Positions 27,490 through 63,356 of a stretch of 64,000 bases of DNA are shown here, one piece after another. The notes under the pieces are model-generated. The model was not told the origin of the DNA. It saw only the letters and a list, made by a program, of their open reading frames with translations, and did no database searches. Within the stretch, counting starts at the first letter, position 1. Every line of letters begins with the position of its first letter. A program made the position numbers and the translations under genes. Origin of the DNA: a virus. Lineage: Duplodnaviria; Caudoviricetes. Location: positions 32,001 to 96,000 of the IMG/VR virus record IMGVR_UViG_3300032237_000809; one strand, written 5' to 3'.

Positions 27490-27963
27490 ATGGCAATAAG
27501 AAGATCGCGTAAAGATGAAACTGAAGAAGAAATTGCAGGACAACCAATTCCAAGAAAAAATCTTAGTCCTAAGAAAAGACATGAATTTGAAAAAAGGAGA
27601 AGAGAGGAAAGAGCAAAAAGAGGTGATCCAAGAGTAGGGGATTCTTTTTCTTCTCAAAGAATGATTGGAAGTAGAGGACATGGATCAGAATATGAGAATA
27701 CTAGGGCAATTCGTGAAGAAATTATTTCATATCTTCTGGATGAAGGTTTTGCATCTAATGAGAAATCTGCAGAATCAATTATGAGTGCTATGAGTGAAAC
27801 ATGGATTGAGAGTATTTTTGAAGCAGAAATTCAACCACCAAGAGAAAGGGTTGGTAATCTAACTAATATTAATATCCCTCAAGAAGAAATAGATGCGGCA
27901 AAAAAAAGAACTCTTGAGAAGGCAAGGAGAATGAGGGAAAAAAGAAAAGAAAAAAAAGATTGA
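27490..27963 (+). CDS. EGY-tag family late protein 1
   Basis: Arg/Lys-rich body plus EEIISYLLDEGFA....AESIMSAMSETWIESIFEA motif. Confidence 0.75.
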   Translation: MAIRRSRKDETEEEIAGQPIPRKNLSPKKRHEFEKRRREERAKRGDPRVGDSFSSQRMIGSRGHGSEYENTRAIREEIISYLLDEGFASNEKSAESIMSAMSETWIESIFEAEIQPPRERVGNLTNINIPQEEIDAAKKRTLEKARRMREKRKEKKD

Positions 27964-28018
27964 CCACTTTTCAAACTGGTACATGAGAGGGTCTTAGCAC
28001 CCTCTTTTTTCGTATAGT
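27962..28018 (+). promoter_or_regulatory. Dyad box + terminator hairpin + -10 box restarting early transcription
   Basis: GACCACTTTTCAAACTGGTACA, hairpin AGAGGGT/ACCCTCT with T-run, TATAGT at 28013. Confidence 0.65.
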
Positions 28019-28041
28019 GGGTTCATACCGCACAAAACCAA

Positions 28042-30225
28042 ATGTCTGTCAATCTTGAAATCAAAGGAATGCTTGCTAAACTTCTGGCAACGGAAGATTT
28101 GATCGTTGAGCACAAAAAAGTAGAGACTGCTTGCTTCAACGTTCATACTCGTGTTTTGACCCTACCTTTCTGGGAAAAGGCTAGTGATGCTGTTTACACG
28201 ATGCTTGTAGCTCATGAATGTGGACATGCAATTTTTACGGATGATACTGATTGGTCCAATGAATATAAAATTCCTAAACAATTTGTGAATATTGTTGAAG
28301 ATGTGCGAATTGAAAAATTGATGAAGCGCAAGTATGCTGGTCTTGCCAAATCTTTTTTCAATGGTTATAGGGAACTTTCAATTGAAGATTTCTTTCAACT
28401 GGGAGATGAAGATGTTAATGAGATGAATCTTGCCGATCGTGTCAATCTTTATTATAAAATCGGAAATTTTATTTCTGTTGATTTTACAGAACAAGAGAAA
28501 GAGATTGTCGATCTTATTGGTAGTGTAGAAACTTTTGATGATGCATTGAAGGCTGCTGAAGTACTTTATAATTACTGTAAGCAAGAAAATGAAGAACAAG
28601 AATCTATTCCTGATCTGGATATTGATGCAAATCAATCTTCGGGTTCTCAGAATGATACACCTTCAGATCTCTCTGATCAAACTCAAGGTGAGAATCAATC
28701 TGAACCTACTCCAGATACTTCCGATAAAGATCAAGATGGAGAAAAATCTCAATCAAATGATTCTAAGAATGATTTTAATAATACACAAGAAAAATCTGTA
28801 GATAATCCAAAACCAAGCAATAAAGGTGGAAAGACTTCCGAACCAAAAGTTAATACTATGGATAAACTTGAGAAGTCTCTCAAAGATCTTGTAAATCTTG
28901 ACTCTGTTGATAATGTTTATGTTGAAATTCCCAAATTGGACATTGATAATCTTATCATCAGCAATTCAGAACTTCATAATGTTTGTGAAGAATACTGGGG
29001 TAACAATGTTGAAGCATTTATCACTGCAGATAAAGAGTTTCGTGAGTTTAAAAATTCTACTCAAAAAGAAGTCAATTATTTGGTGAAAGAATTTGAATGC
29101 CGTAAAGCTGCAGATAGTTATGCTCGCGCTACAACTGCCCGTACTGGTGTTTTAGATTGTACAAAACTTCATACTTACAAATACAATGATGATCTATTCC
29201 GAAAAGTTACCACTCTTGCAGATGGTAAAAATCATGGACTAGTGTTCATTCTGGATTGGTCGGGTTCCATGAGTAGAGTGATGTTGGATACCATTAAACA
29301 ACTTTTTAATCTTATTTGGTTCTGTAAAAAACTGAATATTCCTTTTGATGTCTATGCTTTTACATATGATTATCCAGTTTCTAAACGTGAAGAAAATGGC
29401 ACTGTAATTTATCGCAAACCCTCATACAAAAAAGATGATGGCATACTTTGTATTGATGACTCCTTTTCTTTGCTTAATATGCTGACTAGTAAAGTATCTA
29501 ATAGAACACTAGAAAAACAGATGTTGAATATCTATCGTATTGCCAGATATTTTGGTGATAGGAATTATTCTCCGTATAGCATTCCGATTGGTTGGACCCT
29601 TTCCGGAACACCTTTGAATGAAACTTTGGTTGCTCTTCATGAAATTCTTCCTATCTTTCAAAGGAACAATAAAGCTCAAAAAGTTCAGTGTGTAATTCTC
29701 ACAGATGGTGATGCACCACATTTGAAATATCACAAACAATTTAATAATCGAACGTATGGTGGGGATAGTATCCCATATCTGGGTATTGGATCTCTTGGTC
29801 AAAATTCTTATTTGCGTGATCGTAAGACTGGATATACATATTCTCTGAATTGTGGATATAAGGATTTTTCAAATCTTCTTCTTCGCAATCTTCGGGATAA
29901 ATTTCCATCCGTTAATTTTATTGGTATGAGAATTATAGAATCTCATGATTGTAGTAATTTTATTCGTCATTATACTGGATATAATTATGATTCTGATTAT
30001 GGAAAAATTATGAGTCAATGGAAAAAAGAAAAATCTTTTTCTATTAAAAATTCTGGATACCATACTTATTTTGGTATTTCTGCAAGTTCTCTTTCAAGTA
30101 TTGCAGAATTTCAAGTTATTGAAGATGCTACAAAATCTCAAATTAAAAATGCTTTTATGAAAAGTTTAAAGAGTAAAAAAATGAATAAAAAAGTTCTCAA
30201 TGAATTTATTGATTTAATTGTTTAA
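28042..30225 (+). CDS. CobT-like protein: HExxH metallopeptidase domain, acidic linker, VWA domain
   Basis: AHECGH, NIVED.RIE, MIDAS motif LDWSGSM, GTPL, LTDG. Confidence 0.85.
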   Translation: MSVNLEIKGMLAKLLATEDLIVEHKKVETACFNVHTRVLTLPFWEKASDAVYTMLVAHECGHAIFTDDTDWSNEYKIPKQFVNIVEDVRIEKLMKRKYAGLAKSFFNGYRELSIEDFFQLGDEDVNEMNLADRVNLYYKIGNFISVDFTEQEKEIVDLIGSVETFDDALKAAEVLYNYCKQENEEQESIPDLDIDANQSSGSQNDTPSDLSDQTQGENQSEPTPDTSDKDQDGEKSQSNDSKNDFNNTQEKSVDNPKPSNKGGKTSEPKVNTMDKLEKSLKDLVNLDSVDNVYVEIPKLDIDNLIISNSELHNVCEEYWGNNVEAFITADKEFREFKNSTQKEVNYLVKEFECRKAADSYARATTARTGVLDCTKLHTYKYNDDLFRKVTTLADGKNHGLVFILDWSGSMSRVMLDTIKQLFNLIWFCKKLNIPFDVYAFTYDYPVSKREENGTVIYRKPSYKKDDGILCIDDSFSLLNMLTSKVSNRTLEKQMLNIYRIARYFGDRNYSPYSIPIGWTLSGTPLNETLVALHEILPIFQRNNKAQKVQCVILTDGDAPHLKYHKQFNNRTYGGDSIPYLGIGSLGQNSYLRDRKTGYTYSLNCGYKDFSNLLLRNLRDKFPSVNFIGMRIIESHDCSNFIRHYTGYNYDSDYGKIMSQWKKEKSFSIKNSGYHTYFGISASSLSSIAEFQVIEDATKSQIKNAFMKSLKSKKMNKKVLNEFIDLIV

Positions 30226-30264
30226 TTTATAAATAAGAATAGTAAAAGTAAAGTAAATAAGAAA

Positions 30265-31347
30265 ATGAACTCTGAACAAATTAAAGATCTTCATCTACTC
30301 TATACCGCAGTCTATGATGAAGATCTCAGAAAACAGTTTGATGAATATAACAATACCATCTATGACGAAGATATTGTAGAAGTTGCCACAGAGTACTTCT
30401 ATGCATATGGTCTGAATGATGATGGTATTGATATTCTGATTGAAAACATTGGTCTCGATTCTTTTGTGGAATTTGTTTATGATTTATCAGAAGATCTTTA
30501 TGATCTTACGGAAGCAAGAGCAGCAAGAAAAGCAAGGCCTGGTGGCAAAACTATTGAGCAAGTAAAAGCAGATATTGACGCCAAAGAAAAAAAAGCAGCA
30601 GCAAAGAAGGAAGCAAAGAAAAAAGTTACTACAGCAGCTACTGAGAAAACAGAAACAGAGAGAGTAAAACCAGAAACTCGTGGTCCTGAGAGTCAGGCAA
30701 AAGCACAACAACCAAAGGGAAAAAAACCTGTAAGAGATGCCATAGCAAGAACCATTCTTCAAGGTATTGAGCGTCATAATAAGGCAACAGCGACTGCAGG
30801 GCGCCTTGCTGGTGAAACTGGAGCAACTCTTGGTAGAATCGGTTCACTCGCTGCAGAGGCAGGTAGAAGGGCAGGTGAGCATATTAAAAAGCATGGATTG
30901 AAATCTCTTGCACATGAAGAAGTTGAACTTTTGGCGAATCAACTTATTGAGGAAGGTTATGATCTGAGTGATTATACTTGGGATGATATGATTGAGATTT
31001 ATGAAAAAACTGAGTCTAAGTATAAACCAAAAACCAAAGAAGAACTTGCAAGATATGTCTCTGCTCTTGATAGACTGCATCGTATGGCTACAGAAGTACG
31101 TGGACCAGAACCATCATCAACTCCAGAGAAAAAAAGAAAACCAAAAACGGATATGAGAAATGTCCAAGTTCATGAAGATCTTTATGATGTAATTCTCTCA
31201 CATCTTATCGATGAAGGTTATGCTGATTCTGTAGAACGGGCAGAAGTTATTATGGTGAATATGAGTGAAGAGTGGAGAGATGGAATTCTTGATGAAGCAA
31301 ATAGAGCAGACGATCATGTAACATCGAGTATGTATATGAGTAGTTAA
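30265..31347 (+). CDS. EGY-tag family late protein 2
   Basis: N-tag IKDLHLLYTAVY, middle LIEEGYDLSDYTWDDM, C-tag LYDVILSHLIDEGYA..AEVIMVNMSEEWRDGILDEA; late promoter at 30228. Confidence 0.8.
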   Translation: MNSEQIKDLHLLYTAVYDEDLRKQFDEYNNTIYDEDIVEVATEYFYAYGLNDDGIDILIENIGLDSFVEFVYDLSEDLYDLTEARAARKARPGGKTIEQVKADIDAKEKKAAAKKEAKKKVTTAATEKTETERVKPETRGPESQAKAQQPKGKKPVRDAIARTILQGIERHNKATATAGRLAGETGATLGRIGSLAAEAGRRAGEHIKKHGLKSLAHEEVELLANQLIEEGYDLSDYTWDDMIEIYEKTESKYKPKTKEELARYVSALDRLHRMATEVRGPEPSSTPEKKRKPKTDMRNVQVHEDLYDVILSHLIDEGYADSVERAEVIMVNMSEEWRDGILDEANRADDHVTSSMYMSS

Positions 31348-31360
31348 CCATCTACCACAA

Positions 31361-31486
31361 ATGCAAAAAAAATATCGTAGGCAAGGTAGAGACTTTAAGG
31401 GAGTTTTGCATCGTGATGATTGGGAAACCCAAGGAGAACCAATAAGACAAAAGGCACATAAAGATAGAAGAGGTGTAAAATCATAA
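31361..31486 (+). pseudogene. Frameshifted basic tail or 41-aa orphan module of EGY protein 2
   Basis: MQKKYRRQGRDFKGVLHRDDWETQGEPIRQKAHKDRRGVKS, in +1 frame just after the stop. Confidence 0.4.
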
Positions 31487-31544
31487 AACCACTTTCCAAA
31501 CCGTCACAAGGGGCACTTACCTGCCCCTTTTTTGTGTGTATAAT
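31487..31544 (+). promoter_or_regulatory. Dyad box + terminator hairpin + -10 box upstream of cobS
   Basis: AACCACTTTCCAAACCGTCACA, hairpin AAGGGGCA/TGCCCCTT with T-run, TATAAT at 31539. Confidence 0.7.
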
Positions 31545-31578
31545 AAGAGAGTTCAAATGAAACACACCTAACTACATT

Positions 31579-32718
31579 ATGTCTCGTAAAAATTCTGTGA
31601 CCGACGATCAACTGTTTACTGAACTCAAAGAACTGTTTGGTTCTGAATTTAGTGCTGGTGATATCCGTGGATATTGTGCTTTTAACAATCTTAATTATCA
31701 GACCGTGACTCGCCGTCTGGAACCATTTAAAACTGATCGTGGTCGTTGGAATCTTGAAGTGACTCAAGAAAAAATTGACCAAATTGAGCATACCTTCCAA
31801 TCCCCCGCCGCTCTTCCAAGTCTTCCAGTTGTGCAACAAAATCTTATTCCTGAAAAAGACAATACTTTTGTTAAATTTGGAAATTTTAACGATATTAAAA
31901 AAATTATCTCTTCAAATCTTTTTTATCCGACGTTTATTACTGGTCTTTCTGGCAACGGAAAAACTTTCGGTATTGAGCAGGCATGTGCTCAACTGAAACG
32001 TGAAATGATCCGTGTCAATATTACAATTGAGACTGATGAAGACGATTTGATTGGTGGGTTCCGTCTTGTTAATGGTGAAACTGCCTGGCATAATGGTCCA
32101 GTCATCGAAGCACTTCAACGTGGTGCAATTCTTCTTCTCGATGAGATTGATCTTGCATCGAATAAAATCATGTGTCTTCAATCCGTTCTTGAAGGTAAAG
32201 GAGTCTTTCTCAAAAAAATTGGTAAGTTTGTAAATCCTACTGAAGGATTCAACATTTTTGCCACTGCAAATACTAAAGGTAAGGGTTCTGATGATGGTCG
32301 CTTCATCGGCACCAACGTGCTCAATGAAGCGTTCCTGGAGAGGTTCCCAGTGACCTTTGAGCAGTCTTATCCTGCTCCTTCCACCGAACAGAAGATCCTT
32401 GAAGGCATTGCTCTGGACCTTGGTGTGGAAGATCGTGATTTCTGCAAGCGTCTGGTTGATTGGGGTGATGTGATTCGCAAGACCTTCTACGATGGTGGTA
32501 TTGAAGAAATCATCAGCACCCGTCGTCTGGTTCATATCATTCGTGCCTACAGCATTTTTAATGACAAGGCAAAGGCAATTCAAGTTTGTATCAATCGTTT
32601 TGATGATGAAACTAAGACTGCTTTCCTGGAACTCTATGATAAAATCGACGCTGATTTTGTAATGCCTTCTGAAGGTGAGCAAGTGACTTATAATATTGAC
32701 AATATGCCACAAGTCTGA
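31579..32718 (+). CDS. cobS: CobS-like MoxR AAA+ ATPase
   Basis: GLSGNGKT, ETDEDDLIGG, LLLDEID, TANTKG, NEAFLERF, STRRL. Confidence 0.93.
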   Translation: MSRKNSVTDDQLFTELKELFGSEFSAGDIRGYCAFNNLNYQTVTRRLEPFKTDRGRWNLEVTQEKIDQIEHTFQSPAALPSLPVVQQNLIPEKDNTFVKFGNFNDIKKIISSNLFYPTFITGLSGNGKTFGIEQACAQLKREMIRVNITIETDEDDLIGGFRLVNGETAWHNGPVIEALQRGAILLLDEIDLASNKIMCLQSVLEGKGVFLKKIGKFVNPTEGFNIFATANTKGKGSDDGRFIGTNVLNEAFLERFPVTFEQSYPAPSTEQKILEGIALDLGVEDRDFCKRLVDWGDVIRKTFYDGGIEEIISTRRLVHIIRAYSIFNDKAKAIQVCINRFDDETKTAFLELYDKIDADFVMPSEGEQVTYNIDNMPQV

Positions 32719-32724
32719 TATGAT
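32696..32724 (+). promoter_or_regulatory. sigma70-type promoter
   Basis: TTGACA-17-TATGAT. Confidence 0.65.
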
Positions 32725-34916: not shown

Positions 34917-34918
34917 CT

Positions 34919-45207: not shown

Positions 45208-46539
45208 ATGGAAAGACTTGAACTTACAATTTTACGAAACTTGGTATATAATGAAGATTACTCTAGAAAAGTTATACCTTTTATACAACCAGACTATTTT
45301 GAAGAAAGGACTGAAAAAATTATATTTGAAGAAATTGTTAAGTTTATTGTAAAATATGGGTCAGCAATTACAATAGAGGCACTTGGAATCGAGATTCAAA
45401 ATAGAACTGATTTAACAGAATCTGAAATCAAACAAATTCATGAACTTATTTCTAGTTTTCATAATGGTGTAGTAGAAAAACAATGGATTCTTGATACTAC
45501 TGAAAAATGGTGTAGAGACCGAGCGATTTATCTTGCATTGATGGAATCTATTCATATTGCCGATGGTAATAATGAAAAGAAAAATCGTGATGCAATTCCT
45601 AGTATTTTATCTGATGCTCTTGCAGTATCTTTTGATAATAATATAGGACATGATTATCTTGAAAATTATGAAGATAGGTATGAATTTTATCATCGTAAAG
45701 AAGATAAAATTGAGTTTGATTTAGACTATTTTAATAAAATTACAAAAGGAGGTTTACCTAATAAAACTCTCAACATTGCTCTTGCTGGAACTGGTGTTGG
45801 AAAATCTCTTTTCATGTGTCATGTTGCTAGTTCTGCTTTATTACAGGGTAGAAATGTTCTTTACATAACTCTTGAAATGGCAGAAGAAAGAATTGCTGAA
45901 AGAATTGATGCAAATCTCTTCAATCTACCAATTCAACAACTGATTGATTTGCCAAAACATACGTTTGAAACTAAAGTAAATAGTATCTCTAAAAAGACTA
46001 GAGGTTCTTTAGTGATCAAAGAATATCCAACTGCTTCTGCACATTCTGGACATTTTAAAGCACTTCTTAATGAACTTGCTCTTAAAAAATCATTTAGACC
46101 TGATATTATTTTTATTGACTATCTTAATATTTGTGCTTCTTCTAGGCATAAAGCAAATACCTCAGTCAATTCTTATACTTATATCAAGGCAATTGCTGAG
46201 GAACTTCGTGGTCTTGCAGTTGAGTTTAATGTTCCCATTGTCTCTGCTACTCAGACCACTCGTTCAGGGTATTGCTTGGACTTGAAAACACAAGTTCAAA
46301 CACCGCAAGGACTGAAAGAACTTTCAAATATTCAAGTTGGAGATTTGGTGCTTTCAAATACTGGTTATAATGAAGTCCTAAATGTTTTTCCAAAATCCAA
46401 AAAGAAATCTTATAAGATTACTTTGGAAGATGGTAAAGAAATTATTTGTAGTGAAGAACACTTGTTCCCAACTCAAAATGGTGAAGTGAATATCAAAGGG
46501 GGTTTGAAAGAAGGTATGTCTCTTTATGTAAAAGAATAG
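45208..46539 (+). CDS. gp41: Replicative helicase, N-terminal part, with split-intein IntN
   Basis: AGTGVGKS, TLEMAEE, IDYLNI, SATQTTRSGY followed by CLDLKTQV. Confidence 0.96.
   Translation: MERLELTILRNLVYNEDYSRKVIPFIQPDYFEERTEKIIFEEIVKFIVKYGSAITIEALGIEIQNRTDLTESEIKQIHELISSFHNGVVEKQWILDTTEKWCRDRAIYLALMESIHIADGNNEKKNRDAIPSILSDALAVSFDNNIGHDYLENYEDRYEFYHRKEDKIEFDLDYFNKITKGGLPNKTLNIALAGTGVGKSLFMCHVASSALLQGRNVLYITLEMAEERIAERIDANLFNLPIQQLIDLPKHTFETKVNSISKKTRGSLVIKEYPTASAHSGHFKALLNELALKKSFRPDIIFIDYLNICASSRHKANTSVNSYTYIKAIAEELRGLAVEFNVPIVSATQTTRSGYCLDLKTQVQTPQGLKELSNIQVGDLVLSNTGYNEVLNVFPKSKKKSYKITLEDGKEIICSEEHLFPTQNGEVNIKGGLKEGMSLYVKE
46273..46536 (+). mobile_element. Split intein N-fragment (88 aa), gp41-1-like
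   Basis: CLDLKTQVQTPQG...IICSEEHLFPT...LYVKE then stop. Confidence 0.93.
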
Positions 46540-46588: not shown

Positions 46589-47254
46589 ATGAAAGTAAAG
46601 ATTTATCTAATTACCAACACAGCAGTCAATCCGCATATGTATTATGTTGGATTGACTAAAAATGAATTGGATAGAAGATTACAAGAACATATCACTCTTG
46701 GAAGGCATGAAGGAAATAAACTTCTGTCTGATGCTATTATTGAATATGGTAAAAGAAACTTTACTATTGAAGTGATAGAAGAAGTTGATGAAAGTGAAGC
46801 AAGAATAAAAGAAGATTATTATATTCGCAAATATAAATCTCATTATAGAGATGGATGTGGATATAATATGAAATATGAAACTTCTAATTATGAGAAACAC
46901 TATCACGGAGCAAATCAAGAACTAATAGAAGAGAATATTAGAAATGGTAGGGCGTGGAACTATGGAATAAGTTTTTCTACACAATCAAAAGAAAAAATGA
47001 GAAAAACTAAAAAGCATAGATATTCTCTTGGTGTTTATAAAAAGTTCAATACAAATCATTCACAAGAAACTAAAAATAAAATCGCAGAAAGTAAAAAAGG
47101 ACAAAAACTTACAGAGGAACATAGAAAAAATATTTCTAAATCTTCTGTTGGTAGAACTTGGATTTATAATCCAGAGTTGAATGAAAGAAAGTTTGTAAAA
47201 CAAGATGAGTTGGAAATGTTCTTGGAAAGTGGTTGGAGGAAAGGTAGATTATAA
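46589..47254 (+). CDS. GIY-YIG homing endonuclease with NUMOD3 repeats, between the gp41 halves
   Basis: KIYLITN....YYVGLT...L.RR..EH, AI.EYG..NF.IEVIE, GYN; late promoter at 46560 within a hairpin. Confidence 0.88.
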   Translation: MKVKIYLITNTAVNPHMYYVGLTKNELDRRLQEHITLGRHEGNKLLSDAIIEYGKRNFTIEVIEEVDESEARIKEDYYIRKYKSHYRDGCGYNMKYETSNYEKHYHGANQELIEENIRNGRAWNYGISFSTQSKEKMRKTKKHRYSLGVYKKFNTNHSQETKNKIAESKKGQKLTEEHRKNISKSSVGRTWIYNPELNERKFVKQDELEMFLESGWRKGRL

Positions 47255-47276
47255 ATAAACTTATAGTGTAAAAAAA

Positions 47277-47873
47277 ATGGACTCACAAGAATTACGCAAT
47301 CTTCAAGAAGCATATTTGAAAGTTTGTGAACTTGATGAAGCAAATAGAGTTGAAAGACATTTAGGAATACATTCAAATACTCCAGAAAATGAATTGTCTA
47401 GAATGAAACGCAGAGCGTCTGTTAGTGGCGTTGGAAGTGGAAAAAGTGATATAAATCCCGGAACCTTACGCATGAATAGAGGTGTCGCTAGAATGGTAAC
47501 AAAAAGAAATAGAGGAAAATCACCTTCCGATCCAACATATACAAAAAGAAGAGGAATAGATCCACATGCCGATGTAAAATCTTGGAGAGATTCACCTTTA
47601 GGATTACCAAAAGGGTATAAAGATCCACTTAATCCAAGAACTTCTAAAAATATTGGAAATAAAGTACAGGTTAAAACTAAACCCGCAAGTAAGTTATGGA
47701 GTAATCCACATCAAGCATCCAGTAAAATAGTTAAATTTAGAAGAGAAGATTTTGACATCTACGATATCATCCTCTCACATCTTTTAGATGAAGGTTATGC
47801 CGAAACACCAGAAGCAGCAGAAGCAATTATGGTGAATATGAGTGAAGAATGGAGAGATAGTATTATTGGTTGA
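47277..47873 (+). CDS. EGY-tag family late protein 3 (inside the fractured gp41 locus)
   Basis: N-tag ELRNLQEAYLKV.ELDEA, basic body, C-tag IYDIILSHLLDEGYAETPEAAEAIMVNMSEEWRDSII; late promoter at 47250. Confidence 0.82.
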   Translation: MDSQELRNLQEAYLKVCELDEANRVERHLGIHSNTPENELSRMKRRASVSGVGSGKSDINPGTLRMNRGVARMVTKRNRGKSPSDPTYTKRRGIDPHADVKSWRDSPLGLPKGYKDPLNPRTSKNIGNKVQVKTKPASKLWSNPHQASSKIVKFRREDFDIYDIILSHLLDEGYAETPEAAEAIMVNMSEEWRDSIIG

Positions 47874-47953: not shown

Positions 47954-48379
47954 ATGATGCTGAAAAAAATTCTAAAAATTGAAGAACTTGATGAAAGAGA
48001 ACTTATAGATATTGAAGTGTCTGGAAATCATTTGTTTTATGCGAATGCTATTCTCACACATAATAGTAGCTCTGATGTTGAACTTACTGATACTTCAGAA
48101 TCCTTCGGTCTTCCTGCTACTGCTGATCTTATGTTTGCTCTTATAAGTACAGAAGAGTTGGAAGAATTGGGACAAATTATGGTAAAACAACTTAAAAATA
48201 GATATAATGATCCGACAATTTATAAACGTTTTGTTGTTGGCATTGATCGTGCAAAAATGAGACTTTATGATGTAGAACAGTCCGCTCAAAAAGACATACT
48301 TGACAGTGGACAAAAAGAGGAGTATAATTGCGAAGAAAAGACACCAAAAAAATTATTTGAGGGATTTAAATTTTCATGA
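47954..48379 (+). CDS. gp41: Split-intein IntC (37 aa, 47954-48064) fused to helicase C-terminal part
   Basis: MMLKKILKIEELDERELIDIEVSGNHLFYANAILTHN then SSSDV.LTDTSESFGLPATAD, KQLKNRY. Confidence 0.95.
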   Translation: MMLKKILKIEELDERELIDIEVSGNHLFYANAILTHNSSSDVELTDTSESFGLPATADLMFALISTEELEELGQIMVKQLKNRYNDPTIYKRFVVGIDRAKMRLYDVEQSAQKDILDSGQKEEYNCEEKTPKKLFEGFKFS

Positions 48380-50665: not shown

Positions 50666-52021
50666 ATGAAAAGTTTTTTAAAATTTATAACCGAAGCAAA
50701 TAGTAAAGCAGTTCAACAGGCAACTCGTATGGGACTTGTTACTGATGGGCATGGTGGATGGTATAATAAAGCAACAGGAGAATTTACCGCAAAAACTTTT
50801 CAAGGTGCATTAAAATTTTATAATAAAAGACAAATAATTGGTGGAAAAGATCCTGCACAAACTGAACAGGAAAAAAATCTTTCTCAAACATCTTATGCAC
50901 CTCAACAACCAATCCCACAAGATCAAGTTCCTGTAGATCAGCAGCAACCAATCCCACAAGATCAAGTTCCTGTAGATCAGCAGCAGATGCAAGAACCAGT
51001 TCCACAGGAACCATTTTCTCCACCACCAGTCGAAAAAACTTTAGGAACTTTGACGATTGCTTTTGGTCGCTTTAATCCACCAACCATAGGTCATCTTCAG
51101 TTAATGGATACTGCTGCTGCATCTGCAGAACAAGATCAGAGTGACTATATTATTGTTCCTTCTCGTACTCAAGATGCAAAGAAAAATCCTTTGGATGCTG
51201 ATACAAAAATCTATTATATAAGAAAAATGTTTCCTCAACATAGTGAGAGGATTTATAATGATGTAAATTTAAGAACTATTTTTGATGTTCTCAAAAAGGC
51301 TCATAATGATGGATATTCAAGCGTAAGAATTGTTGGTGGATCTGATAGGGTAAAAGAATTTGATAAATTGGCAAATAATTATAATGGAAATCTTTATCAA
51401 TTTGATAATATTGACGTAATTTCTTCTGGAGATAGAGATCCTGATTCTGAAGGAGTTGAAGGAGTTTCTGCATCAAGAATGAGACTTGCAGCTGCTGAAG
51501 GAGATTTTAAAACTTTTCGTATGGGACTTCCTCCTGAAGTTTCTAGAAAGGATGCAATAGAACTTTTTGATGTTCTTCGTCAATCTATGGGAATTGAGCA
51601 AATACAAGAAGAAGGTTATTATGTTTGGGAAATTGCTCCTAAATTTGATCTAAATTCTCTTCGTGAAAATTATATTTCAGAGAAAATTTTCCAGATTGGA
51701 CAATTAGTTGAGAATATGAATACGGGTCTTGTTGGGCGCATTATTCGTAGGGGAACTAATTATTTGATTTGTGTGACTGAAGGTGGAATGATGTTTAAAT
51801 CCTGGATTAAGGATATGATGGAAACAAAGAAATATACAGAAGTTATGATGGATAGTGAAATGAGAGAACCAGGAAAACCAAATACGTTAGTTGGAACTCT
51901 TGGTGCATTTAAGAATTATGCGAGCAAAACTCCAGGTGCTATTGGAACTGGCGCAGAGAATTTACAACCGGGTGGAAATGCTTATGGTATTAATTTCATA
52001 AATAGATTTAGAAAAAAGTAA
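50666..52021 (+). CDS. HxGH nucleotidyltransferase (cytidylyltransferase/NadD-like) with capsid-targeting-like N-terminus
   Basis: FGRFNPPTIGH, VGGSDR, SG.RDPD, SASRMR; begins MKSFLKFITEA. Confidence 0.82.
   Translation: MKSFLKFITEANSKAVQQATRMGLVTDGHGGWYNKATGEFTAKTFQGALKFYNKRQIIGGKDPAQTEQEKNLSQTSYAPQQPIPQDQVPVDQQQPIPQDQVPVDQQQMQEPVPQEPFSPPPVEKTLGTLTIAFGRFNPPTIGHLQLMDTAAASAEQDQSDYIIVPSRTQDAKKNPLDADTKIYYIRKMFPQHSERIYNDVNLRTIFDVLKKAHNDGYSSVRIVGGSDRVKEFDKLANNYNGNLYQFDNIDVISSGDRDPDSEGVEGVSASRMRLAAAEGDFKTFRMGLPPEVSRKDAIELFDVLRQSMGIEQIQEEGYYVWEIAPKFDLNSLRENYISEKIFQIGQLVENMNTGLVGRIIRRGTNYLICVTEGGMMFKSWIKDMMETKKYTEVMMDSEMREPGKPNTLVGTLGAFKNYASKTPGAIGTGAENLQPGGNAYGINFINRFRKK
50906..50983 (+). repeat. 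In-frame 39-bp tandem duplication (QPIPQDQVPVDQQ x2)
   Basis: Two identical consecutive copies in the Gln/Pro linker. Confidence 0.9.
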
Positions 52022-56705: not shown

Positions 56706-59002
56706 GTAACGGAACACGGGTAGTTAAGAGAAATGGATCTGTTGAAGGTTTAGATTTAAATAAACTTCATTTGATGGTAGAAGAAGCATGTAAGGATCTG
56801 GCAGGAGTATCAGCATCACAAGTTGAAATGCAATCTGGTATTCAATTTTATGATGGAATTTCTACAGTAGAAGTTCAGGAAATTTTGATTCGCTCTGCTT
56901 CTGACCTAATTGATCTTGAACATCCTAATTATCAATTTGTTGCTGCTCGTTTGCTTTTATTCGCTCTTCGTAAACAATTGTTTGGTCGTATGTATGAATG
57001 TCCAAATGTTCTTGAGCATACTAAAAAATGTGTAGAACTTGGTGTTTATGATGAAGAGATTCTTTCTCTATATAATGAGGAAGAGTTTGAAAAACTTCAA
57101 TCATTTGTTGATCATGATCGTGATTATCTTTTTACTTATGCAGGTCTTCGTCAGGTAGTTGATAAGTATTTGGTACAAGATCGTAGTAGTGGACAACTTT
57201 ATGAAACTCCACAATTCATGTATCTTTTGATTGCTGCCACTATTTTTTCTAAATATCCAAAAGAAACACGTTTAGATTATGTTAAGAGGTATTATGATGC
57301 AATCAGCAAACACAAGATCAACATCCCAACACCAATCATGGCAGGAGTCAGAACACCTCTTCGCCAATATGCTTCTTGTGTTCTCGTTGATGTTGATGAT
57401 ACCCTCAGGAGTATCGGTCACTCTGATTTGGCTATTTACGAATATGTTGCACAGAGAGCTGGTATCGGTATCAACGCAGGTAGAATCCGTGGCATCAACT
57501 CTAAAATCAGAGGTGGAGAGGTACAACACACAGGCATTATTCCCTTCCTTAAGAAGTTTGAAGCAACTGTCAGATCTTGCACACAAAACGGTATTAGAGG
57601 TGGTTCTGCTACAGTCTTTTTTCCTATCTGGCATCAAGAAATAAGTGATATTCTGGTCTTAAAAAATAATAAAGGAACTGAAGATAATCGTGTTCGTAAG
57701 TTAGACTATGGAATTCAACTCAGCAAAATCTTCTATGAACGATTCATTCAAAACGGAGAAATCACACTTTTCTCACCACACGATGTTCCTGGTCTTTATG
57801 ATGCTTTTGGCACTGATAGATTTGACGACCTTTACGTGGGTTATGAACGAGATGCATCTGTTCCAAGAAAAACTATCGGTGCTCAAGAACTCTTTTTGGA
57901 CCTTCTGAAGGAAAGAGCAGAAACTGGTCGTATTTACATTATGAATATTGACCATTGTAATTCTCATAGTCCTTTCCTTGATAAGATTTCAATGAGCAAT
58001 CTTTGTATGGAAATACTTTTGCCGACTAAACCAATTCAACACATTGATGATCCAAATGGTGAAATTGCTCTTTGCATTCTTAGTGCTATCAATATTGGAA
58101 AGATTAAAACCAATGAAGATCTTGAAGTTCTTTGTGATCTTGCCATTAGAAGTCTTGATGAACTTATTGATTTTCAAGGATATCCCGTTAAAGCAGCAGA
58201 AATCGCAACCAAAGCGCGACGTTCACTTGGAGTAGGTTATATTGGTCTTGCACACTATCTTGCCAAGAATAATGTCAAATATGATGATCAGAATGCTTGG
58301 CAATTGGTTCATGATTTAACTGAGGCATTCCAATATTATCTAATCAAGGCAACCGTAAATCTTGCAAAAGAAAAAGGGGCATGTGCATATTCTCATCGTA
58401 CCAAGTACGGTCAAGGAATTCTGCCAATTGATACCTATAAAAAGGATGTTGATGAATTGGTTGAAAATGTGCTAAAATATGATTGGGAAGCACTTCGGGA
58501 AGAGGTAAAAATTTATGGAGTCAGAAACTCCACTCTCTCAGCACAAATGCCCTCCGAGAGCAGTTCAGTCGTCTCCAATGCCACAAATGGAATTGAACCA
58601 CCTCGCGGATATCTATCCATTAAGAAGTCCAAGAAAGGTCCTCTTAAGCAAATTGTCCCACAGTTTGGAACACTCAAAAACAATTATACGTTGCTTTGGG
58701 ATATGCCTAGCAATCGTGGTTATATTAGTATTGTTGCAGTTATGCAGAAGTTCTTCGATCAAGCGATTTCTGGAAACTGGTCCTATAATCCGGGCAATTA
58801 TCCGAATAATGAAGTTCCTGTTAGCGTGATGGCACAAGATATGCTTACGTGCTTTAAGTATGGGCATAAAACTGCATATTATCAAAACACTTATGATAAT
58901 AAAACTGATGAAGTGGTAGATGAACCAAAGCAAGAACTCAATTCACTTCTTGATGATATTATGAGTTCTGATGAAACTAGTTGCGATAGTTGCTCAATTT
59001 AA
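56702..59002 (+). CDS. nrdA: Ribonucleotide reductase class Ia alpha subunit
   Basis: ATP cone, PTPIM, SCVL, SNLCMEI, MPSESSS, YYQ, C-terminal CDSC. Confidence 0.98.
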   Translation: MSNGTRVVKRNGSVEGLDLNKLHLMVEEACKDLAGVSASQVEMQSGIQFYDGISTVEVQEILIRSASDLIDLEHPNYQFVAARLLLFALRKQLFGRMYECPNVLEHTKKCVELGVYDEEILSLYNEEEFEKLQSFVDHDRDYLFTYAGLRQVVDKYLVQDRSSGQLYETPQFMYLLIAATIFSKYPKETRLDYVKRYYDAISKHKINIPTPIMAGVRTPLRQYASCVLVDVDDTLRSIGHSDLAIYEYVAQRAGIGINAGRIRGINSKIRGGEVQHTGIIPFLKKFEATVRSCTQNGIRGGSATVFFPIWHQEISDILVLKNNKGTEDNRVRKLDYGIQLSKIFYERFIQNGEITLFSPHDVPGLYDAFGTDRFDDLYVGYERDASVPRKTIGAQELFLDLLKERAETGRIYIMNIDHCNSHSPFLDKISMSNLCMEILLPTKPIQHIDDPNGEIALCILSAINIGKIKTNEDLEVLCDLAIRSLDELIDFQGYPVKAAEIATKARRSLGVGYIGLAHYLAKNNVKYDDQNAWQLVHDLTEAFQYYLIKATVNLAKEKGACAYSHRTKYGQGILPIDTYKKDVDELVENVLKYDWEALREEVKIYGVRNSTLSAQMPSESSSVVSNATNGIEPPRGYLSIKKSKKGPLKQIVPQFGTLKNNYTLLWDMPSNRGYISIVAVMQKFFDQAISGNWSYNPGNYPNNEVPVSVMAQDMLTCFKYGHKTAYYQNTYDNKTDEVVDEPKQELNSLLDDIMSSDETSCDSCSI

Positions 59003-59021
59003 AAATAAATAAGGAAAAAGT

Positions 59022-60164
59022 ATGATTGATAATATGACAGTTTTCAATTCCCATGAAGTTGATACCAAAAAGCAACCAATGTTTTTTGGACAACCTCTTG
59101 GCATTCAACGATATGATACTTACAAGTATCCTATTTTTGATAAATTGACTCAACAACAATTAAGTTATTTTTGGCGTCCTGAAGAAATATCACTTCAAAA
59201 AGACCGTGGTGATTATCAAACACTTCGACCCGAACAGAAACATATTTTTACTTCTAATCTAAAATATCAAATTATGTTAGATTCCATTCAAGGTCGTGGA
59301 CCAGGAATGGCATTTGCTCCCTACTGCTCACTTCCAGAATTAGAAGCGTGTATGAAGGTTTGGGAATTTATGGAAATGATTCACTCACGATCTTATACAT
59401 ATATTATCAAAAATATATATTCAGATCCTTCGGATGTGTTTGATACTATTCTTAGAGATGAAAAAATTCTTGAACGCGCATATAGTGTAACCGAAGCATA
59501 TGATGATTTTATCAATAGTGCTCAACATTATGGAACTTCTGAACTTTGGAAACACGCTCAAGAACAAGTTCCCTATGCACAGGATCAAAGATATGAACTC
59601 AAAAGAAAGCTCTTTAGAGCAGTTGCAAATGTTAATATTCTTGAAGGTATTCGTTTTTACGTCAGTTTTGCTTGCAGTTTTGCATTTGGCGAACTCAAAC
59701 TTATGGAAGGAAGTGCAAAAATCATCAGTCTGATTGCGCGTGACGAGAATCAACATCTAGTCATTACTCAAAATATTTTGAACAAATGGAAAGAAAGTGA
59801 TGATCCTGATATGAAGAAAATCATGGATGAAGAAGAACCATGGGTATATAAGACCTTTGAAAAAGCAGTCAATCAAGAGAAACTTTGGGCAGAATATCTG
59901 TTCAAAGATGGTTCTATGATTGGTCTGAATGATAAACTTCTTCAGCAATATGTTGAATGGATTGCAAATCGTCGTATGAGGGCGATTGGTTTGAAACCTC
60001 TTTATGATATTCCAGCAAAAAATAATCCACTTCCTTGGACGGAGCATTGGATTTCTTCCAAAGGATTGCAAGTAGCTCCACAAGAAGTGGAAGCGGAACA
60101 ATATTTAATTGGAGGAATTAAACAAGATGTTACCAAAGATACTTTCTCAGGATTCCAATTATGA
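59022..60164 (+). CDS. nrdB: Ribonucleotide reductase class Ia beta subunit
   Basis: FWRPEE, DSIQGR, EMIHSRSY, EGIRFY, RDENQH. Confidence 0.98.
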   Translation: MIDNMTVFNSHEVDTKKQPMFFGQPLGIQRYDTYKYPIFDKLTQQQLSYFWRPEEISLQKDRGDYQTLRPEQKHIFTSNLKYQIMLDSIQGRGPGMAFAPYCSLPELEACMKVWEFMEMIHSRSYTYIIKNIYSDPSDVFDTILRDEKILERAYSVTEAYDDFINSAQHYGTSELWKHAQEQVPYAQDQRYELKRKLFRAVANVNILEGIRFYVSFACSFAFGELKLMEGSAKIISLIARDENQHLVITQNILNKWKESDDPDMKKIMDEEEPWVYKTFEKAVNQEKLWAEYLFKDGSMIGLNDKLLQQYVEWIANRRMRAIGLKPLYDIPAKNNPLPWTEHWISSKGLQVAPQEVEAEQYLIGGIKQDVTKDTFSGFQL

Positions 60165-60288
60165 TGAATGGGTAGAACAGGAAATTTTGAATGCCTTTAA
60201 AGATGCTGCAGAAGTAGATGAATTTATTTTTGGTGATTATAATTATGAAGAAGACTGGTTAGGTAAAATGAATAATGATATCAATTGA
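60127..60288 (+). CDS. Small acidic hypothetical protein (53 aa, not in ORF track)
   Basis: MLPKILSQDSNYDEWVEQEILNAFKDAAEVDEFIFGDY...; overlaps the nrdB end and stops at the terminator. Confidence 0.5.
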   Translation: MLPKILSQDSNYDEWVEQEILNAFKDAAEVDEFIFGDYNYEEDWLGKMNNDIN

Positions 60289-60318
60289 GAGTCCTTTGGG
60301 ACTCTTTTTTTATAAATA
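60288..60318 (+). terminator. Intrinsic terminator fused to late promoter
   Basis: AGAGTCC-TTTG-GGACTCT, T-run, TATAAATA. Confidence 0.8.
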
Positions 60319-60402
60319 AAATTATAAAAAGGTATATTAAATGGAAAGAATTACATCGAATCAAGTAGTTGATTTAATGGAGGCATATCAGGCAGTATAT
60401 GT

Positions 60403-60506
60403 TCCTCAAGAAAATTTAAATGAAGAATTGGTCTGGGAAGAAGTTGAAAATTGGTCCTCAAGAAAATTTAAATGAAGAATTGGTCTGGGAAGAAGTTGAA
60501 AATTGG
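60403..60506 (+). repeat. Perfect 52-bp tandem duplication
   Basis: TCCTCAAGAAAATTTAAATGAAGAATTGGTCTGGGAAGAAGTTGAAAATTGG twice. Confidence 0.95.
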
Positions 60507-61019
60507 GTAAATTCTCTTTTAGAAGAAGGATATGACTTGGGAGATTATGCTTGGGAAGAAATGTATGAGGAATATTTGAGTGAAGTTCCCATGACTGGTA
60601 GCAATCGTCCCACTAAATTAAGTGACCCGTTAGCAAATACAGGACGCGCTATAGGAAGTGCAGCACGTTCTTTTGTTACGGGTTCCTCTAGACCAGGCAA
60701 TACTGGATCTCAATCTACGAGGGCAACACAACCTTCACCAGGAACTTCGACTGGTGGGGGAGGATATGCTGCCGGCCGTACTACAAGTTCACCGGTAACA
60801 CCATATCGTGCAAATGATCCTAGAAGAACTGATACTAGTACAAGATCAAGATTTGCTCGTCCAATGAATGCAGGAACTCCAAGTACAGTTGCCGTCAGAG
60901 GAACTGGTGGATCTTCTACACAAAGACCACCAATTGGATCTTTACCTGCAAGTGCAAGACAACCAACACAATATCCAGCAGGAGTTTCTACTGGTGTTGG
61001 TGGTGGAAATGCTGGTGCC

Positions 61020-61212
61020 TCTAGACCCGCTCCTGCTGCCCCTGCTAGACCAGTTGCTAGACCCTCTGCTGCCGCTCCTAGACCCGCTGCTAGTGCCCCT
61101 GCTGCCGCTCCTAGACCAGTTGCTAGACCGTCTGCTGCTCCTGCTCCTAGTGTCCCTAGATCCGCTACTAGTGCCCCTGCTGCCGCTCCTAGACCCGCTG
61201 CTAGTGCTCCTA
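61020..61212 (+). repeat. Coding minisatellite (Ala-Pro-Arg-Ser repeats)
   Basis: Recurring CCTGCTGCCGCTCCTAGACC / GCTAGTGCCC units encoding APAAAPRP. Confidence 0.85.
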
Positions 61213-61737
61213 GTATATCAAAATCTACATCTCAAGCACCTAGTACATCCCCTGCTGCAACAACTGGTAATCCACCATTAGCACCAAAACCATTACCCCC
61301 AATCATGGGTAAACCAAGTCTTTCATCGCAAGCAGCAGAAATTCGTGCCATGAGACAAAGATCTCAACAACGTATTATCTCACAAGGTGGAACTCCAGCA
61401 ACTGCATTGGTTCAAAGTTTTGATCCATTTGATGTTGTATTGGGACATCTAATTGATGAAGGTTATGCTGATACTGAAGAATCAGCACTCCAAATTATGG
61501 CAAATATGAGTGAAGAGTGGAGAGATGGAATTCTTGATGAAGCAAAAACTGTTATGAGTGTGACATCACCTTCTGAAAAATCCAGAAGATTAAATATATC
61601 CAAAGCTAAACCTTCAGAAAATTTGGAAGGTTAAAGAAGACTGTCTGCTGCCAGAGATATGAAACAACAGGATGTTGATCGTAGGGCTCCTCAAATTGAA
61701 AAAAAAAAAATTAAAAGAAGACATAATATTAATTGAA

Positions 61738-61793
61738 GACTACTTTCCAAACTGTTCATATAGAGGTCTTCGGACCTCTTTTTTTTATAAATA
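61738..61793 (+). terminator. Degenerate dyad box + UUCG terminator + late promoter
   Basis: GACTACTTTCCAAACTGTTCA; AGAGGTC-TTCG-GACCTCT, T-run, TATAAATA. Confidence 0.8.
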
Positions 61794-61820
61794 AGTTTAT
61801 ACAGAAAATATTTTATTAAA

Positions 61821-63356
61821 ATGTCTAACCTATCAACAGAAGTTTTTGGAGATATGAATTTTCTTTATGAGCATATTGCAACTAAAGAAAATGAAAAACT
61901 TAATGAAAACTCTGAATACTATGACGAAGAATTTGCAGAACTTGTAGAGAATATTATTTCTACTATTTCTTTATCAATGGTCTATGAAGGTTATAGTGCA
62001 GAAGGAATTTTATCATTTCTTGCAGATTTTTCAGAAGAAGATATCGTTGAAAGATATTTAAATTTTGATGAAAATATTCTTACGGAAAGTGTAGTTCCTG
62101 AAGAGTATATTGTTGAACAATTAGATATTTTTGATAACGCCATTTCTGAAGGTTTAGGAACAGTAATTGGAAGAGTTGCTAAAGGTGCAGCTTCCCTGGC
62201 AGGAAGAATTGTTTCAAAACCTGCAAGAATGAAGGTTGCACAAAAACTCATGACTAGCACAAATCCTGCTAGAACAGGAAAGGCAGTTGATAGATTGGCA
62301 AGAATGAAGTTGAACAAGGCAGGAGCTCCTGCGGATGTGACTAAAGGTTTAGTAGATGCTGCACCAAATATTTCAACAAAAGCTAGATTAATAGCAACTG
62401 CTCCTGTAATGGGTAAGGTCGTTAAGGGTGTACAAAAAGTAAAAGATATTGCCAGAGGTGCAAAAGCAGCATTAACGGGTTCAACTGCTAAAAAAATTGG
62501 TTTGGGTGCTGCAGCATTAGGTGCTGCTACTGGAGCAGGTTATATTGGTGGTAAGATGTCGGGAGCAGGTGGTGGTCAAGGATCTTCACCAGCAATTGCA
62601 AAATCAACAGGTAAACCCTCTGACAATTTTATGCAAGGTAGTTCTCTTGCTAAACTTGGTGGAAGAGAAGGTAGAGTTAAAGGTGGAGAATTTAGAAGTA
62701 TTAATTGGACGCAACAATCTAGAGATAGGTATAACGCAGCAAATCCATCTACAAAACCTACAGCATCTGCTGCATCTACACCTTCTGCTCCTAGTGGCAG
62801 TGGTGGTGGTTCTGCTGCATCTTCTGGTGGCGGTGGCGGTGGTGCTGGAACAAGAGCACCTTCTGCTGCAAGAGCATCTTCTCCATCAAAAGCATCCTCT
62901 GCTACAAAGGCAAAAGAAACGGGTAAAACTCCAGCAGGAGAGACACCAATGCAGACTTGGGCAAGAACTAATCCAAAACTTGCTGCTAAAGTAAAACTTG
63001 GTCAGTCTGGATACGATGAAATTTCTGCAAAAAGAACTGTACCTGGACCTTATGAAAAACAGGATCAAACTCCAACAACTGGACCAGAACCAACAGAAGC
63101 ACAAAAGACTCAAGCAGGATCAGATGTTGCTGCATATCAGGCAGCAGAAAAGGAAAGATTTAATAAAAAGCAAAAAGAAGTAGCAGCATTAACACAGAAA
63201 GAATCTTATGATGCATATGATTTGGTAATTGAATATTTACTTCATACTGGACATGCAGATACAATCTCTGAAGCAGAATATGTAATATCAAATTTTGATT
63301 CTGATATGCTTGATACTCTTATTGAATCTACAGCAATCTGGATTGAAAATCTTTGA
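61821..63356 (+). CDS. EGY-tag family late protein 5 (divergent), with Gly/Ala hydrophobic segment and low-complexity body
   Basis: Acidic N-terminal region with VYEGYS, IGLGAAALGAATGAGYIGG, C-tag YDAYDLVIEYLLHTGHADTISEAEYVI. Confidence 0.72.
   Translation: MSNLSTEVFGDMNFLYEHIATKENEKLNENSEYYDEEFAELVENIISTISLSMVYEGYSAEGILSFLADFSEEDIVERYLNFDENILTESVVPEEYIVEQLDIFDNAISEGLGTVIGRVAKGAASLAGRIVSKPARMKVAQKLMTSTNPARTGKAVDRLARMKLNKAGAPADVTKGLVDAAPNISTKARLIATAPVMGKVVKGVQKVKDIARGAKAALTGSTAKKIGLGAAALGAATGAGYIGGKMSGAGGGQGSSPAIAKSTGKPSDNFMQGSSLAKLGGREGRVKGGEFRSINWTQQSRDRYNAANPSTKPTASAASTPSAPSGSGGGSAASSGGGGGGAGTRAPSAARASSPSKASSATKAKETGKTPAGETPMQTWARTNPKLAAKVKLGQSGYDEISAKRTVPGPYEKQDQTPTTGPEPTEAQKTQAGSDVAAYQAAEKERFNKKQKEVAALTQKESYDAYDLVIEYLLHTGHADTISEAEYVISNFDSDMLDTLIESTAIWIENL

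Follow-up and report, generated by a model that had tools for sequence, protein, structure and literature searches.

The stretch of DNA analyzed here (64,000 nucleotides (nt), hereafter the window) corresponds to bases 32001-96000 of the 125.5-kb IMG/VR contig IMGVR_UViG_3300032237_000809, which has an estimated completeness of 58% and belongs to a T4-like freshwater cyanophage (cyanomyovirus). It encodes five dispersed members of a protein family that we name the EGY family after its shared acidic module with the signature L(I/L)(D/E)EGY. The genes are denoted by their first nucleotide as 27490, 30265, 47277, 60341 and 61821, and they are the only copies in the whole contig. The family follows one architecture: a short acidic amphipathic N-leader precedes at least one unit, in which a basic disordered stretch without sequence constraint is followed by a conserved, acidic, three-helix EGY module of ~40 amino acids. 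In this study, we propose that the EGY proteins are variant T4-type internal head proteins that would be processed by the gp21 prohead protease according to a different grammar. We give this reading about an even chance, because every step after transcription is one that we infer.

Homology, architecture and junctions of the EGY proteins

The initial annotation had grouped these five genes by acidic tags at the N-terminus, in the middle and at the C-terminus of otherwise unrelated late proteins. Four of the listed open reading frames (ORFs; 27490, 30265, 47277 and 61821) are indeed intact, but 60341 is frameshifted and not a single ORF. BLASTP confirms that the C-terminal tags are homologous, with 64-72 bits and 61-76% identity over 38-41 amino acids among the three close copies, and with 38-42 and 33-38 bits for the divergent copies of 27490 and 61821, respectively. 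The middle tag reported for two ORFs is likewise recovered (residues 215-246 of 30265 against residues 21-52 of the ORF starting at 60420; 59% identity, 45 bits) and is a diverged copy of the same EGY module. Three of the genes (47277, 60341 and 30265) have the N-tag; it is weak in 61821 and missing from 27490, whose product has a basic start. Outside the tags the window paralogs share no significant similarity, in agreement with their description as unrelated bodies; between orthologs, unlike between paralogs, the bodies are conserved.

The common promoter also stands: an exact TATAAATA precedes all five ATGs, starting 26-37 nt upstream. This motif occurs at 22 sites in the window versus 8.5 expected, 20 of them on the plus strand. 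In other phage contigs, 60 of 97 family ORFs are also preceded by its exact form, mostly at a distance of ~27 nt. Three of the window genes form full units of terminator hairpin, T-run, TATAAATA, gene and terminator. From the promoter motif, the five genes are predicted to be transcribed late.

A canonical member consists of the N-leader M-D-A-Q-E-L-R-N-L-Q-E-A-Y-(L/M)-E-V..(L)DE, a body of 56-136 amino acids and an EGY module with the core D-I-Y-D-I-I-L-S-H-L-L-D-E-G-Y-A-E-T-P-E..I-M-V-N-M-S-E-E-W-R-D-S-I-I-G, directly followed by the stop codon. In the AlphaFold2 model of 47277, based on a 74-sequence alignment, the module comprises three short helices (residues 157-172, 178-187 and 190-197) with a predicted local distance difference test (pLDDT) score of ~90, the N-terminal helix reaches ~70-80, and the part between helix and module is disordered. 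A predicted complex of two copies of the module scores 0.40 against a mark of 0.42. The bodies are mutually unrelated, contain 23% Lys + Arg, are rich in Ala, Gly and Ser, lack Cys and have isoelectric points of 10-11.5. Over 47 distinct single-unit members, the mean charge is -4.6 for the N-leader, -8.1 for the module and +12.2 ± 2.6 for the body, resulting in a net charge of -0.5 ± 3.0; a body charge that balances the tags seems to be the only conserved feature of the bodies. The notion of variable cargo on a portable tag does not hold, since across several hundred relatives the bodies never form a recognizable folded domain and the proteins instead alternate acidic modules with basic disordered linkers. 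Among 130 longer relatives (348-730 amino acids), a Pfam search detected no domain except a marginal LisH match (PF08513): two multi-module relatives reach 27 bits by summed weak matches versus the Pfam cut-off of 21.6. Of 25 single modules, two come to E ~0.06 (best 0.063), which is below significance, and the five window proteins give no LisH match.

The strongest result of this analysis concerns the junctions between these parts. In a survey of 201 distinct proteins, 128 C-terminal modules end in W-R-x-S-I-(I/L/V)-G-stop, whereas 67 of 68 internal modules have I-x-E or ILDE at the place of Gly-stop, after which the protein continues. A Glu is thus found at the module end only when protein follows. 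The N-leader runs into hydrophobic-x-Glu (h-x-E) in 170 of 176 members, exactly at the limit of conservation, and the early observation that the tags often end in this motif can consequently be extended from the window to the whole family. The window junctions read ELDE/A, YDLTE/A, EYLSE/V, GILDE/A (twice), SIFE/A, NILTE/S and TLIE/S, where the slash marks the predicted cut. Common body openings (ELTG.RK, GYK.LP, AEGSYGQTPK, EKPFPHEK) occur after either an N-leader or an internal module, and both types of junction are therefore equivalent. Together they look like cut sites of a head protease: gp21 of T4 cuts after L/I-X-E, and Asp at P1 blocks the cut (PMC9026906). Within 249 bodies, [LIVMF]-x-E is depleted (202 versus 265.5 in shuffles, z -4.6) and [LI]-x-D enriched (173 versus 117 in shuffles, z +5.4), with z-scores that are inflated by the relatedness of the family sequences.

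In addition, the family is linked to genes with T4-type targeting starts. The capsid targeting sequence (CTS) of T4 is MKTYQEFIAE (PMC8442874). In six loci (L022-L025, L034 and L037; five if the near-identical L022 and L024 are counted once), ORFs with a basic body and the start MKTYQEFIIE/A, MKTFQEFLRE/A, MKTYQQFSE or MKTFQEFM lie at most 1.1 kb from family genes, and no CTS-like start was found elsewhere in the 1 Mb of loci. Related genes of the cultured phages S-SRM01 and P-SSM2 are included in Table 1. These CTS-like basic proteins, whose ten N-terminal residues come close to the CTS of T4 and whose genes are always found beside EGY genes, are the best candidates for the true T4-type internal proteins of such phages. 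The true CTS-like starts are carried by neighboring genes in other phages and not by family members; in the 125-kb contig, no ORF start resembles K-T-Y-Q-E-F.

Distribution and probable exchange of the family

A search with the 47277 protein yields 3569 relatives of similar length. The A3 profile, built from 25 EGY modules, matches 4346 clusters at 50% identity (2988 at E ≤ 1e-10), with at most three modules and 650 amino acids per protein, and at least 420 family loci are present in IMG/VR. All Atlas clusters with the family are viral (100%) and annotated as 'hypothetical protein', and among 185,579 prokaryotic genomes the matches amount to five short contigs from freshwater metagenome-assembled genomes: the EGY family is phage-only. 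Other large carrier contigs hold one to four copies, versus five in this contig. Counting paralogs with a tag profile, an idea of the initial annotation, thus reveals a large phage family with one to five copies per genome. A gp21 homolog with 64-75% identity to that of the window is encoded in four of the five other large carrier contigs.

Three cultured phages carry family genes. S-SRM01 has four, at positions matching 27490, 30265, 60341 and 61821; S-CRM01 has g291, g292 and g95-g94-g93; P-SSM2 has PSSM2_212 and PSSM2_140. The latter (L095:1063-1218) is a stand-alone EGY module of 51 amino acids located between uvsY and uvsW, with no basic body and no exact TATAAATA in the 60 nt upstream. 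The T4-GC clusters 136, 207 and 208 are unique to P-SSM2 (Sullivan et al., 2010). In S-CRM01, the three abutting ORFs g95, g94 and g93 (L096:1468-2362, minus strand) read as one multi-unit gene with a late promoter (N-leader, body, module, body, module, body). The first module extends across the g95/g94 border close to an A-run, which may stem either from a sequencing error in the homopolymer or from a true frameshift. The EGY module is absent from Syn9, S-PM2, S-SM1, P-SSM7, S-CREM1 (by the C-module profile) and T4, and tblastn finds no homolog in S-CREM2. Long proteins on a like plan are nevertheless missed by the C-module profile, namely S-CREM1 ORF219 (L083:1-2064) and P-SSM7 PSSM7_106 (L087:2293-4191), in which acidic helical modules resembling EGY or Y-F-x-A-E-G-I-N alternate with long basic stretches and junctions such as IYE/AEGSYGKTPK occur. 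The superfamily is therefore wider than the counts given here.

No function could be assigned from databases. Pfam has no family for the EGY proteins and gives nothing significant for the five window proteins. PHROG 3708, of unknown function, matches 30265 (E 1.3e-11), 60420 (E 1.9e-10) and 47277 (E 1.7e-6), but neither 27490 nor 61821; in total three PHROGs match the family, all of unknown function. A PDB profile search with the family found nothing, and a structure search with the AlphaFold2 model returned generic helix matches only (Z < 5). The family is thus uncharacterized in Pfam, PHROGs, PDB, Atlas and the literature searched, as the initial annotation had supposed.

Several observations indicate DNA-level mobility. 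A GIY-YIG ORF lies within 1.5 kb of 27 of 97 family genes, mostly at less than 350 nt, out of 42 such ORFs in total in 1.02 Mb of loci. The canonical tags are homogenized at the DNA level, with conservation extending to synonymous sites. Over 53 distinct versions of the canonical module DNA, the same codon is used at 79% of the conserved residues; the invariant codons include AGT for Ser and the pair GCA-GCA, while 46 of the 53 versions encode Val by GTG. The bodies that separate these DNA-conserved canonical tags cannot be aligned. Within the window, 44 nt are exactly identical between 30265 (31258-31301) and the 60341 gene (61503-61546), the tags being otherwise 71% identical; this patch looks like gene conversion and makes a branch (loose end) in the contigs of the single public sequencing run that contains this DNA. 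In that run, a tag word reaches a depth of 265 versus ~16 for its flanks. Taken together, endonuclease adjacency, codon identity, the shared patch and tag-word depth suggest that the coding ends undergo recombination or gene conversion and that cassettes are exchanged between genomes.

The five window genes and their surroundings

Among cultured phages, the source phage is most closely related to Synechococcus phages from fresh water and estuaries (S-SRM01, S-CRM01, B3/B23 and the DSL-LC phages), and a near-identity DNA search in cultured phages gave no match. Besides the family, the window encodes portal, gp21, gp22, gp23, an intein-split gp41 helicase and several GIY-YIG endonuclease genes (Table 1). 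The gp23 propeptide site EFLSE/NVP resembles EYLSE/VP of gene 60341. A homing-endonuclease-like gene (15260-15853) separates gp21 and gp22, and a perfect 39-nt tandem repeat of 2.1 copies is located at 50906-50985 inside the ORF 50666-52021.

Four members (27490, 30265, 60341 and 61821) are resident syntenic lineages, while 47277 is the canonical form that dominates metagenomes. The ortholog of 27490 is S-SRM01 QPX48194, with the same synteny (gp46, EGY gene, peptidase). A 45-residue basic ORF at 27331-27468, between gp46 and 27490, contains QKRKLKPQALRQA, and its sequence is that of the N-terminus of a 277-residue EGY protein in locus L014 (5786-6619). Gene 30265 has an acidic N-domain ending in YDLTE/AR (30499-30519) and a C-terminal module ending in GILDE/AN; it shares 48% identity over 90% of its length with its ortholog S-SRM01 QPX48196. 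Between its stop codon and the terminator at 31508-31529 lies a very basic ORF of 41 amino acids in the +1 frame (31361-31486), which may be a detached tail of 30265; in relatives (e.g., P0034), a ...HVTSSMYMS segment runs in frame into a basic stretch. The annotated order in S-SRM01 is gp46, EGY gene, peptidase, EGY gene, MoxR ATPase. In the window, a 727-residue 'peptidase' with HExxH and vWA (phrog_459; 28042-30225) sits between 27490 and 30265, and the ORF 31579-32718, identified by position only, occupies the place of the MoxR-type ATPase gene. The HExxH-vWA peptidase was rejected as a processor of the family: the sole argument for it is synteny in two phages, and the family genes of S-CRM01 and P-SSM2 are located elsewhere.

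Gene 47277 sits between the two gp41 halves of the split-intein locus. Its N-tag M-D-S-Q-E-L-R-N-L-Q-E-A-Y...ELDE/AN (residues 1-21) is followed by a basic disordered body with a net charge of +21 and a module ending in DSIIG-stop. Gene 60341 is frameshifted by an exact 52-nt tandem duplication. The unitig spanning the duplication junction (60425-60484) has a depth of 18.8 in the public run, compared to 15 and 9.4 for its flanks; this flank-like depth rules out an assembly artefact, and the duplication is thus real in that population. The ORF 60420 comprises a middle module ending in EYLSE/VP, a basic body rich in Pro, Ala, Ser and Thr, a second module ending in GILDE/AK and a basic tail. An intact ortholog exists as S-SRM01 QPX48234. 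Programmed frameshifting, at 60341 as well as at the tail of 30265, was considered and set aside for want of evidence. Gene 61821 has S-SRM01 QPX48236 and PSSM2_212 as orthologs. Its N-domain contains an EGY-like stretch MVYEGYS (61977-61997) and ends in NILTE/SV, its C-module ends in TLIE/STA, and a terminator at 63380-63402 closes the unit ahead of a GIY-YIG gene (63465-63914).

Table 1. Features of the EGY genes, of neighboring window genes and of CTS-like genes in other phages (slashes mark junctions; positions refer to the window unless a locus is given)
Feature	Position	Strand	Remarks
Predicted late promoter TATAAATA of 27490	27464..27471	+	directly 3' of terminator hairpin 27430-27460
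Family member 1 (27490), 157 aa	27490..27963	+	basic N-part, EGY module, basic tail; no N-tag
EGY module of 27490	27697..27849	+	IRE upstream; end SIFE/AE at 27811-27828
Terminator-like hairpin closing the 27490 unit	27985..28006	+	
Predicted late promoter TATAAATA of 30265	30228..30235	+	
Family member 2 (30265), 360 aa	30265..31347	+	N-tag, acidic N-domain, basic stretch, middle EGY, C-terminal EGY
Middle EGY-like module of 30265 (LIEEGYDLSDY...)	30907..31011	+	end IYE/KT
C-terminal EGY module of 30265	31162..31314	+	
Predicted late promoter TATAAATA of 47277	47250..47257	+	
Family member 3 (47277), 198 aa	47277..47873	+	canonical cassette form
Terminal EGY module of 47277	47733..47870	+	
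gp41 helicase N-half	45208-46539		intein-N-like end
GIY-YIG endonuclease gene	46589-47254		between gp41 halves, adjoins 47277
gp41 helicase C-half	47954-48379		intein-C-like start ...ILTHN/S
Predicted late promoter TATAAATA of 60341	60311..60318	+	directly 3' of terminator hairpin 60287-60306
Family member 4 (60341)	60341..61634	+	split: 60341-60475 (44 aa, N-tag) and 60420-61634 (404 aa, remainder)
EGY module of the 60341/60420 gene	61401..61559	+	
Exact 52-nt tandem duplication, two copies	60403..60506	+	frameshifts gene 60341
Predicted late promoter TATAAATA of 61821	61786..61793	+	directly 3' of terminator hairpin 61762-61779
Family member 5 (61821), 511 aa	61821..63356	+	acidic N-domain, basic Gly/Ala/Ser-rich body, divergent EGY module
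Divergent EGY module of 61821	63183..63353	+	
gp21-type prohead maturation protease	14613..15263	+	phrog_207, E 3e-79
gp22 scaffold	15890-17047	+	ordinary gene, separate from the EGY family
gp23 major head protein	17100-18506	+	propeptide end EFLSE/NVP
CTS-like ORF	L025:8406-9966		
CTS-like ORF	L034:2605-2802		
CTS-like ORF	L037:4249-4446		
CTS-like ORF	L023:4417-4710		
CTS-like late gene S-SRM01 QPX48235 (MKSFSQFLEE)	L104:3825-5168		between orthologs of 60341 and 61821
CTS-like gene PSSM2_213 ((V)KTYQQFNE)	L094:2403-3155		follows PSSM2_212 in P-SSM2

Interpretation and comparison with known systems

The most economical reading of these data is a T4-like internal-protein system with a different grammar, whose cleavage, packaging and ejection we infer from sequence patterns. 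The late precursors would enter the prohead core and be built into it. There, gp21 as the putative processing enzyme would cut after the hydrophobic-x-Glu ending the N-leader, thereby releasing the leader, and after the I/L-x-Glu ending every internal EGY module, thereby separating the units. The mature pieces would each consist of a basic peptide with its EGY module still attached, some members having a purely basic tail as well. Until assembly, the acidic parts may shield the polycation, and/or they may retain it in the core, perhaps via core binding or self-association, and the basic parts would either stay with the DNA as counter-ions or be ejected.

Several points weigh against this internal-protein reading. 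The EGY N-leader is not homologous to the T4 CTS and is similar in character only. The h-x-E motif is a short one within acidic helices, the contrast between Gly-stop and Glu could reflect helix capping, and the scores for motif use in the bodies are inflated as stated above. The cyanophages checked that have a published virion proteome (Syn9, S-PM2 and S-SM1) belong to the phages without the EGY module, and the GenBank notes on S-CRM01 mention no detection by mass spectrometry. The frameshift in 60341 implies that at least this member is dispensable or inactive in this phage, and PSSM2_140 demonstrates that an EGY module can exist without cargo. Finally, no consistent h-x-E is present upstream of most C-terminal modules. 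The C-tag, initially viewed as removable, thus probably stays on the basic peptide in most cases, and processing is predicted to yield leaderless units in which the basic peptide keeps its module, instead of bare peptides. In combination with the stand-alone module of P-SSM2, this indicates that the EGY module is an independent domain and more than a disposable tag.

Such a domain could also act outside the virion. The EGY proteins would then be late proteins whose basic stretches bind nucleic acid in the infected cell, either condensing or organizing phage DNA before or during packaging or contributing to late host shut-off, with EGY as a LisH-like self-association domain and I-x-E as a simple helix continuation. 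The module does resemble the LisH pattern h-x-x-I-L-x-(H/Y)-L-x-x-x-G-Y-x-x-T, with scores above the cut-off in two relatives, it folds confidently alone in the model, it stands alone in P-SSM2, and no body is ever a folded cargo domain. We nevertheless judge this explanation unlikely. It leaves unexplained why Glu appears only when protein follows, why the bodies avoid h-x-E and favor h-x-D, and why the family clusters with T4-like CTS genes, while the LisH match is marginal and missing for the window's own proteins. The junction grammar, predicted late expression and link to gp21 would also fit accessory prohead-core (scaffold) proteins in the manner of T4 gp67, gp68 and gp22, which would help to form the core or set its size, be cleaved by gp21 and for the most part be expelled before DNA entry, delivering nothing functional to the host. 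In T4, cleavage of gp22, gp67 and gp68 yields several fragments, which exit the head (PMC9026906). Furthermore, four of the five genes occupy the same places in S-SRM01, as expected of resident structural genes. Yet the strongly basic, hypervariable bodies contrast with the acidic, conserved gp22, a copy number of one to five per genome and the frameshift of one copy here are odd for a core builder, and the canonical form behaves as an exchangeable cassette; an accessory scaffold role is consequently somewhat less plausible still.

That exchangeability might itself be the whole explanation, if the genes were largely selfish or neutral passengers of which the conserved ends serve as recombination handles, spread with GIY-YIG homing endonucleases between co-infecting phages, and the protein has little function. 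The frequent GIY-YIG neighbors, the position of 47277 inside the split-intein locus, the codon identity of the tags, the shared 44-nt patch and the excess depth of a tag word all fit. However, the ORFs remain open over thousands of variants, charge balance and junction grammar are kept, which implies selection on the protein, and synteny and conserved bodies mark four of the five members as orthologs. As mobility and function can coexist, we regard mainly selfish cassettes as improbable. A combination of both aspects is conceivable, though we put it forward only tentatively and as an unlikely extension: head-delivered peptide cassettes, in which blocky polyampholyte polyproteins would be loaded via the self-associating acidic module and diced by gp21 at I-x-E, and in which recombination at the DNA-conserved coding ends would let co-infecting phages exchange bodies, often with a homing endonuclease. 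If true, such an arrangement would diversify injected or DNA-bound peptides in a way for which no counterpart has been described in T4.

No part of the T4-type virion is understood less well than its internal head proteins. To our knowledge, almost none have been identified outside the T-even coliphages, and cyanophage genomes are annotated as lacking them. With thousands of variants in lake and estuary viromes and up to five copies per genome, the EGY family would fill this gap if it is the cyanophage equivalent of the internal head proteins. It would then represent a second grammar of targeting and processing, unrelated to the first, by which T4-type heads are loaded, which is useful for CTS-style engineering of packaging and delivery. 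It would also be a concrete example of selection that maintains charge and cut sites alone and leaves the sequence free. The hypothesis can be tested in the cultured phages S-SRM01, S-CRM01 and P-SSM2.

Among known systems, the internal proteins of T-even phages are the nearest parallel: they are basic and diverse, and a targeting leader is all that unites them (PMC3012670). Like IPI, IPII and IPIII of T4, the EGY proteins are encoded by late genes in plastic regions, have basic bodies that vary between paralogs and phages, carry a short conserved N-leader ending in hydrophobic-x-Glu and occur in a genome with a gp21-type protease. They differ by a leader that is not homologous to MKTYQEFIAE, by an extra acidic module of ~40 amino acids after each basic stretch, by multi-unit polyprotein forms and by bodies that are disordered polycations and not folded inhibitors like IPI*. 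Alt of T4 and the inner-body or ejection proteins of phiKZ and SPN3US are head-internal and subject to gp21-type trimming after Glu, Alt being trimmed at both ends and the phiKZ/SPN3US proteins at several sites (PMC9026906). In the EGY family such features are only predicted, and the enzymatic or large structured domains of those proteins are not detectable. The core proteins gp22, gp67 and gp68 of T4 share several L/I-x-E cut sites (predicted ones in the EGY family), acidic helical segments and a place in the late head module, but they are encoded by conserved genes in single copy and have no long basic blocks. They show no sequence similarity to the EGY family: searched with the A3 profile, the complete T4 genome gives a single match of 11.8 bits (E 0.04).

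Other parallels concern the tag and the gene unit. In encapsulin cargo-loading peptides and in the helix-loop-helix coat-binding domain of P22 scaffolding protein, a short conserved C-terminal element is likewise found on variable proteins bound for the interior of an HK97-fold shell. The EGY module, in contrast, is acidic, has three helices, is also internal and repeated, and has no known partner. LisH (PF08513) corresponds in residue pattern over the first helix and turn, but is a eukaryotic motif with no known role in phages, and single EGY modules stay below significance. At the level of genes, the T4-type modular shuffling cassettes of Arbiol et al. in 2010 are reportedly ORFs flanked by promoters and stem-loops in hyperplastic regions. 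The EGY genes similarly come as self-contained terminator-promoter-gene units in which conserved flanks enclose unrelated inserts, and they show signs of exchange between genomes, whereas their flanks are coding (N-leader and C-module) and their promoter is late, not early.

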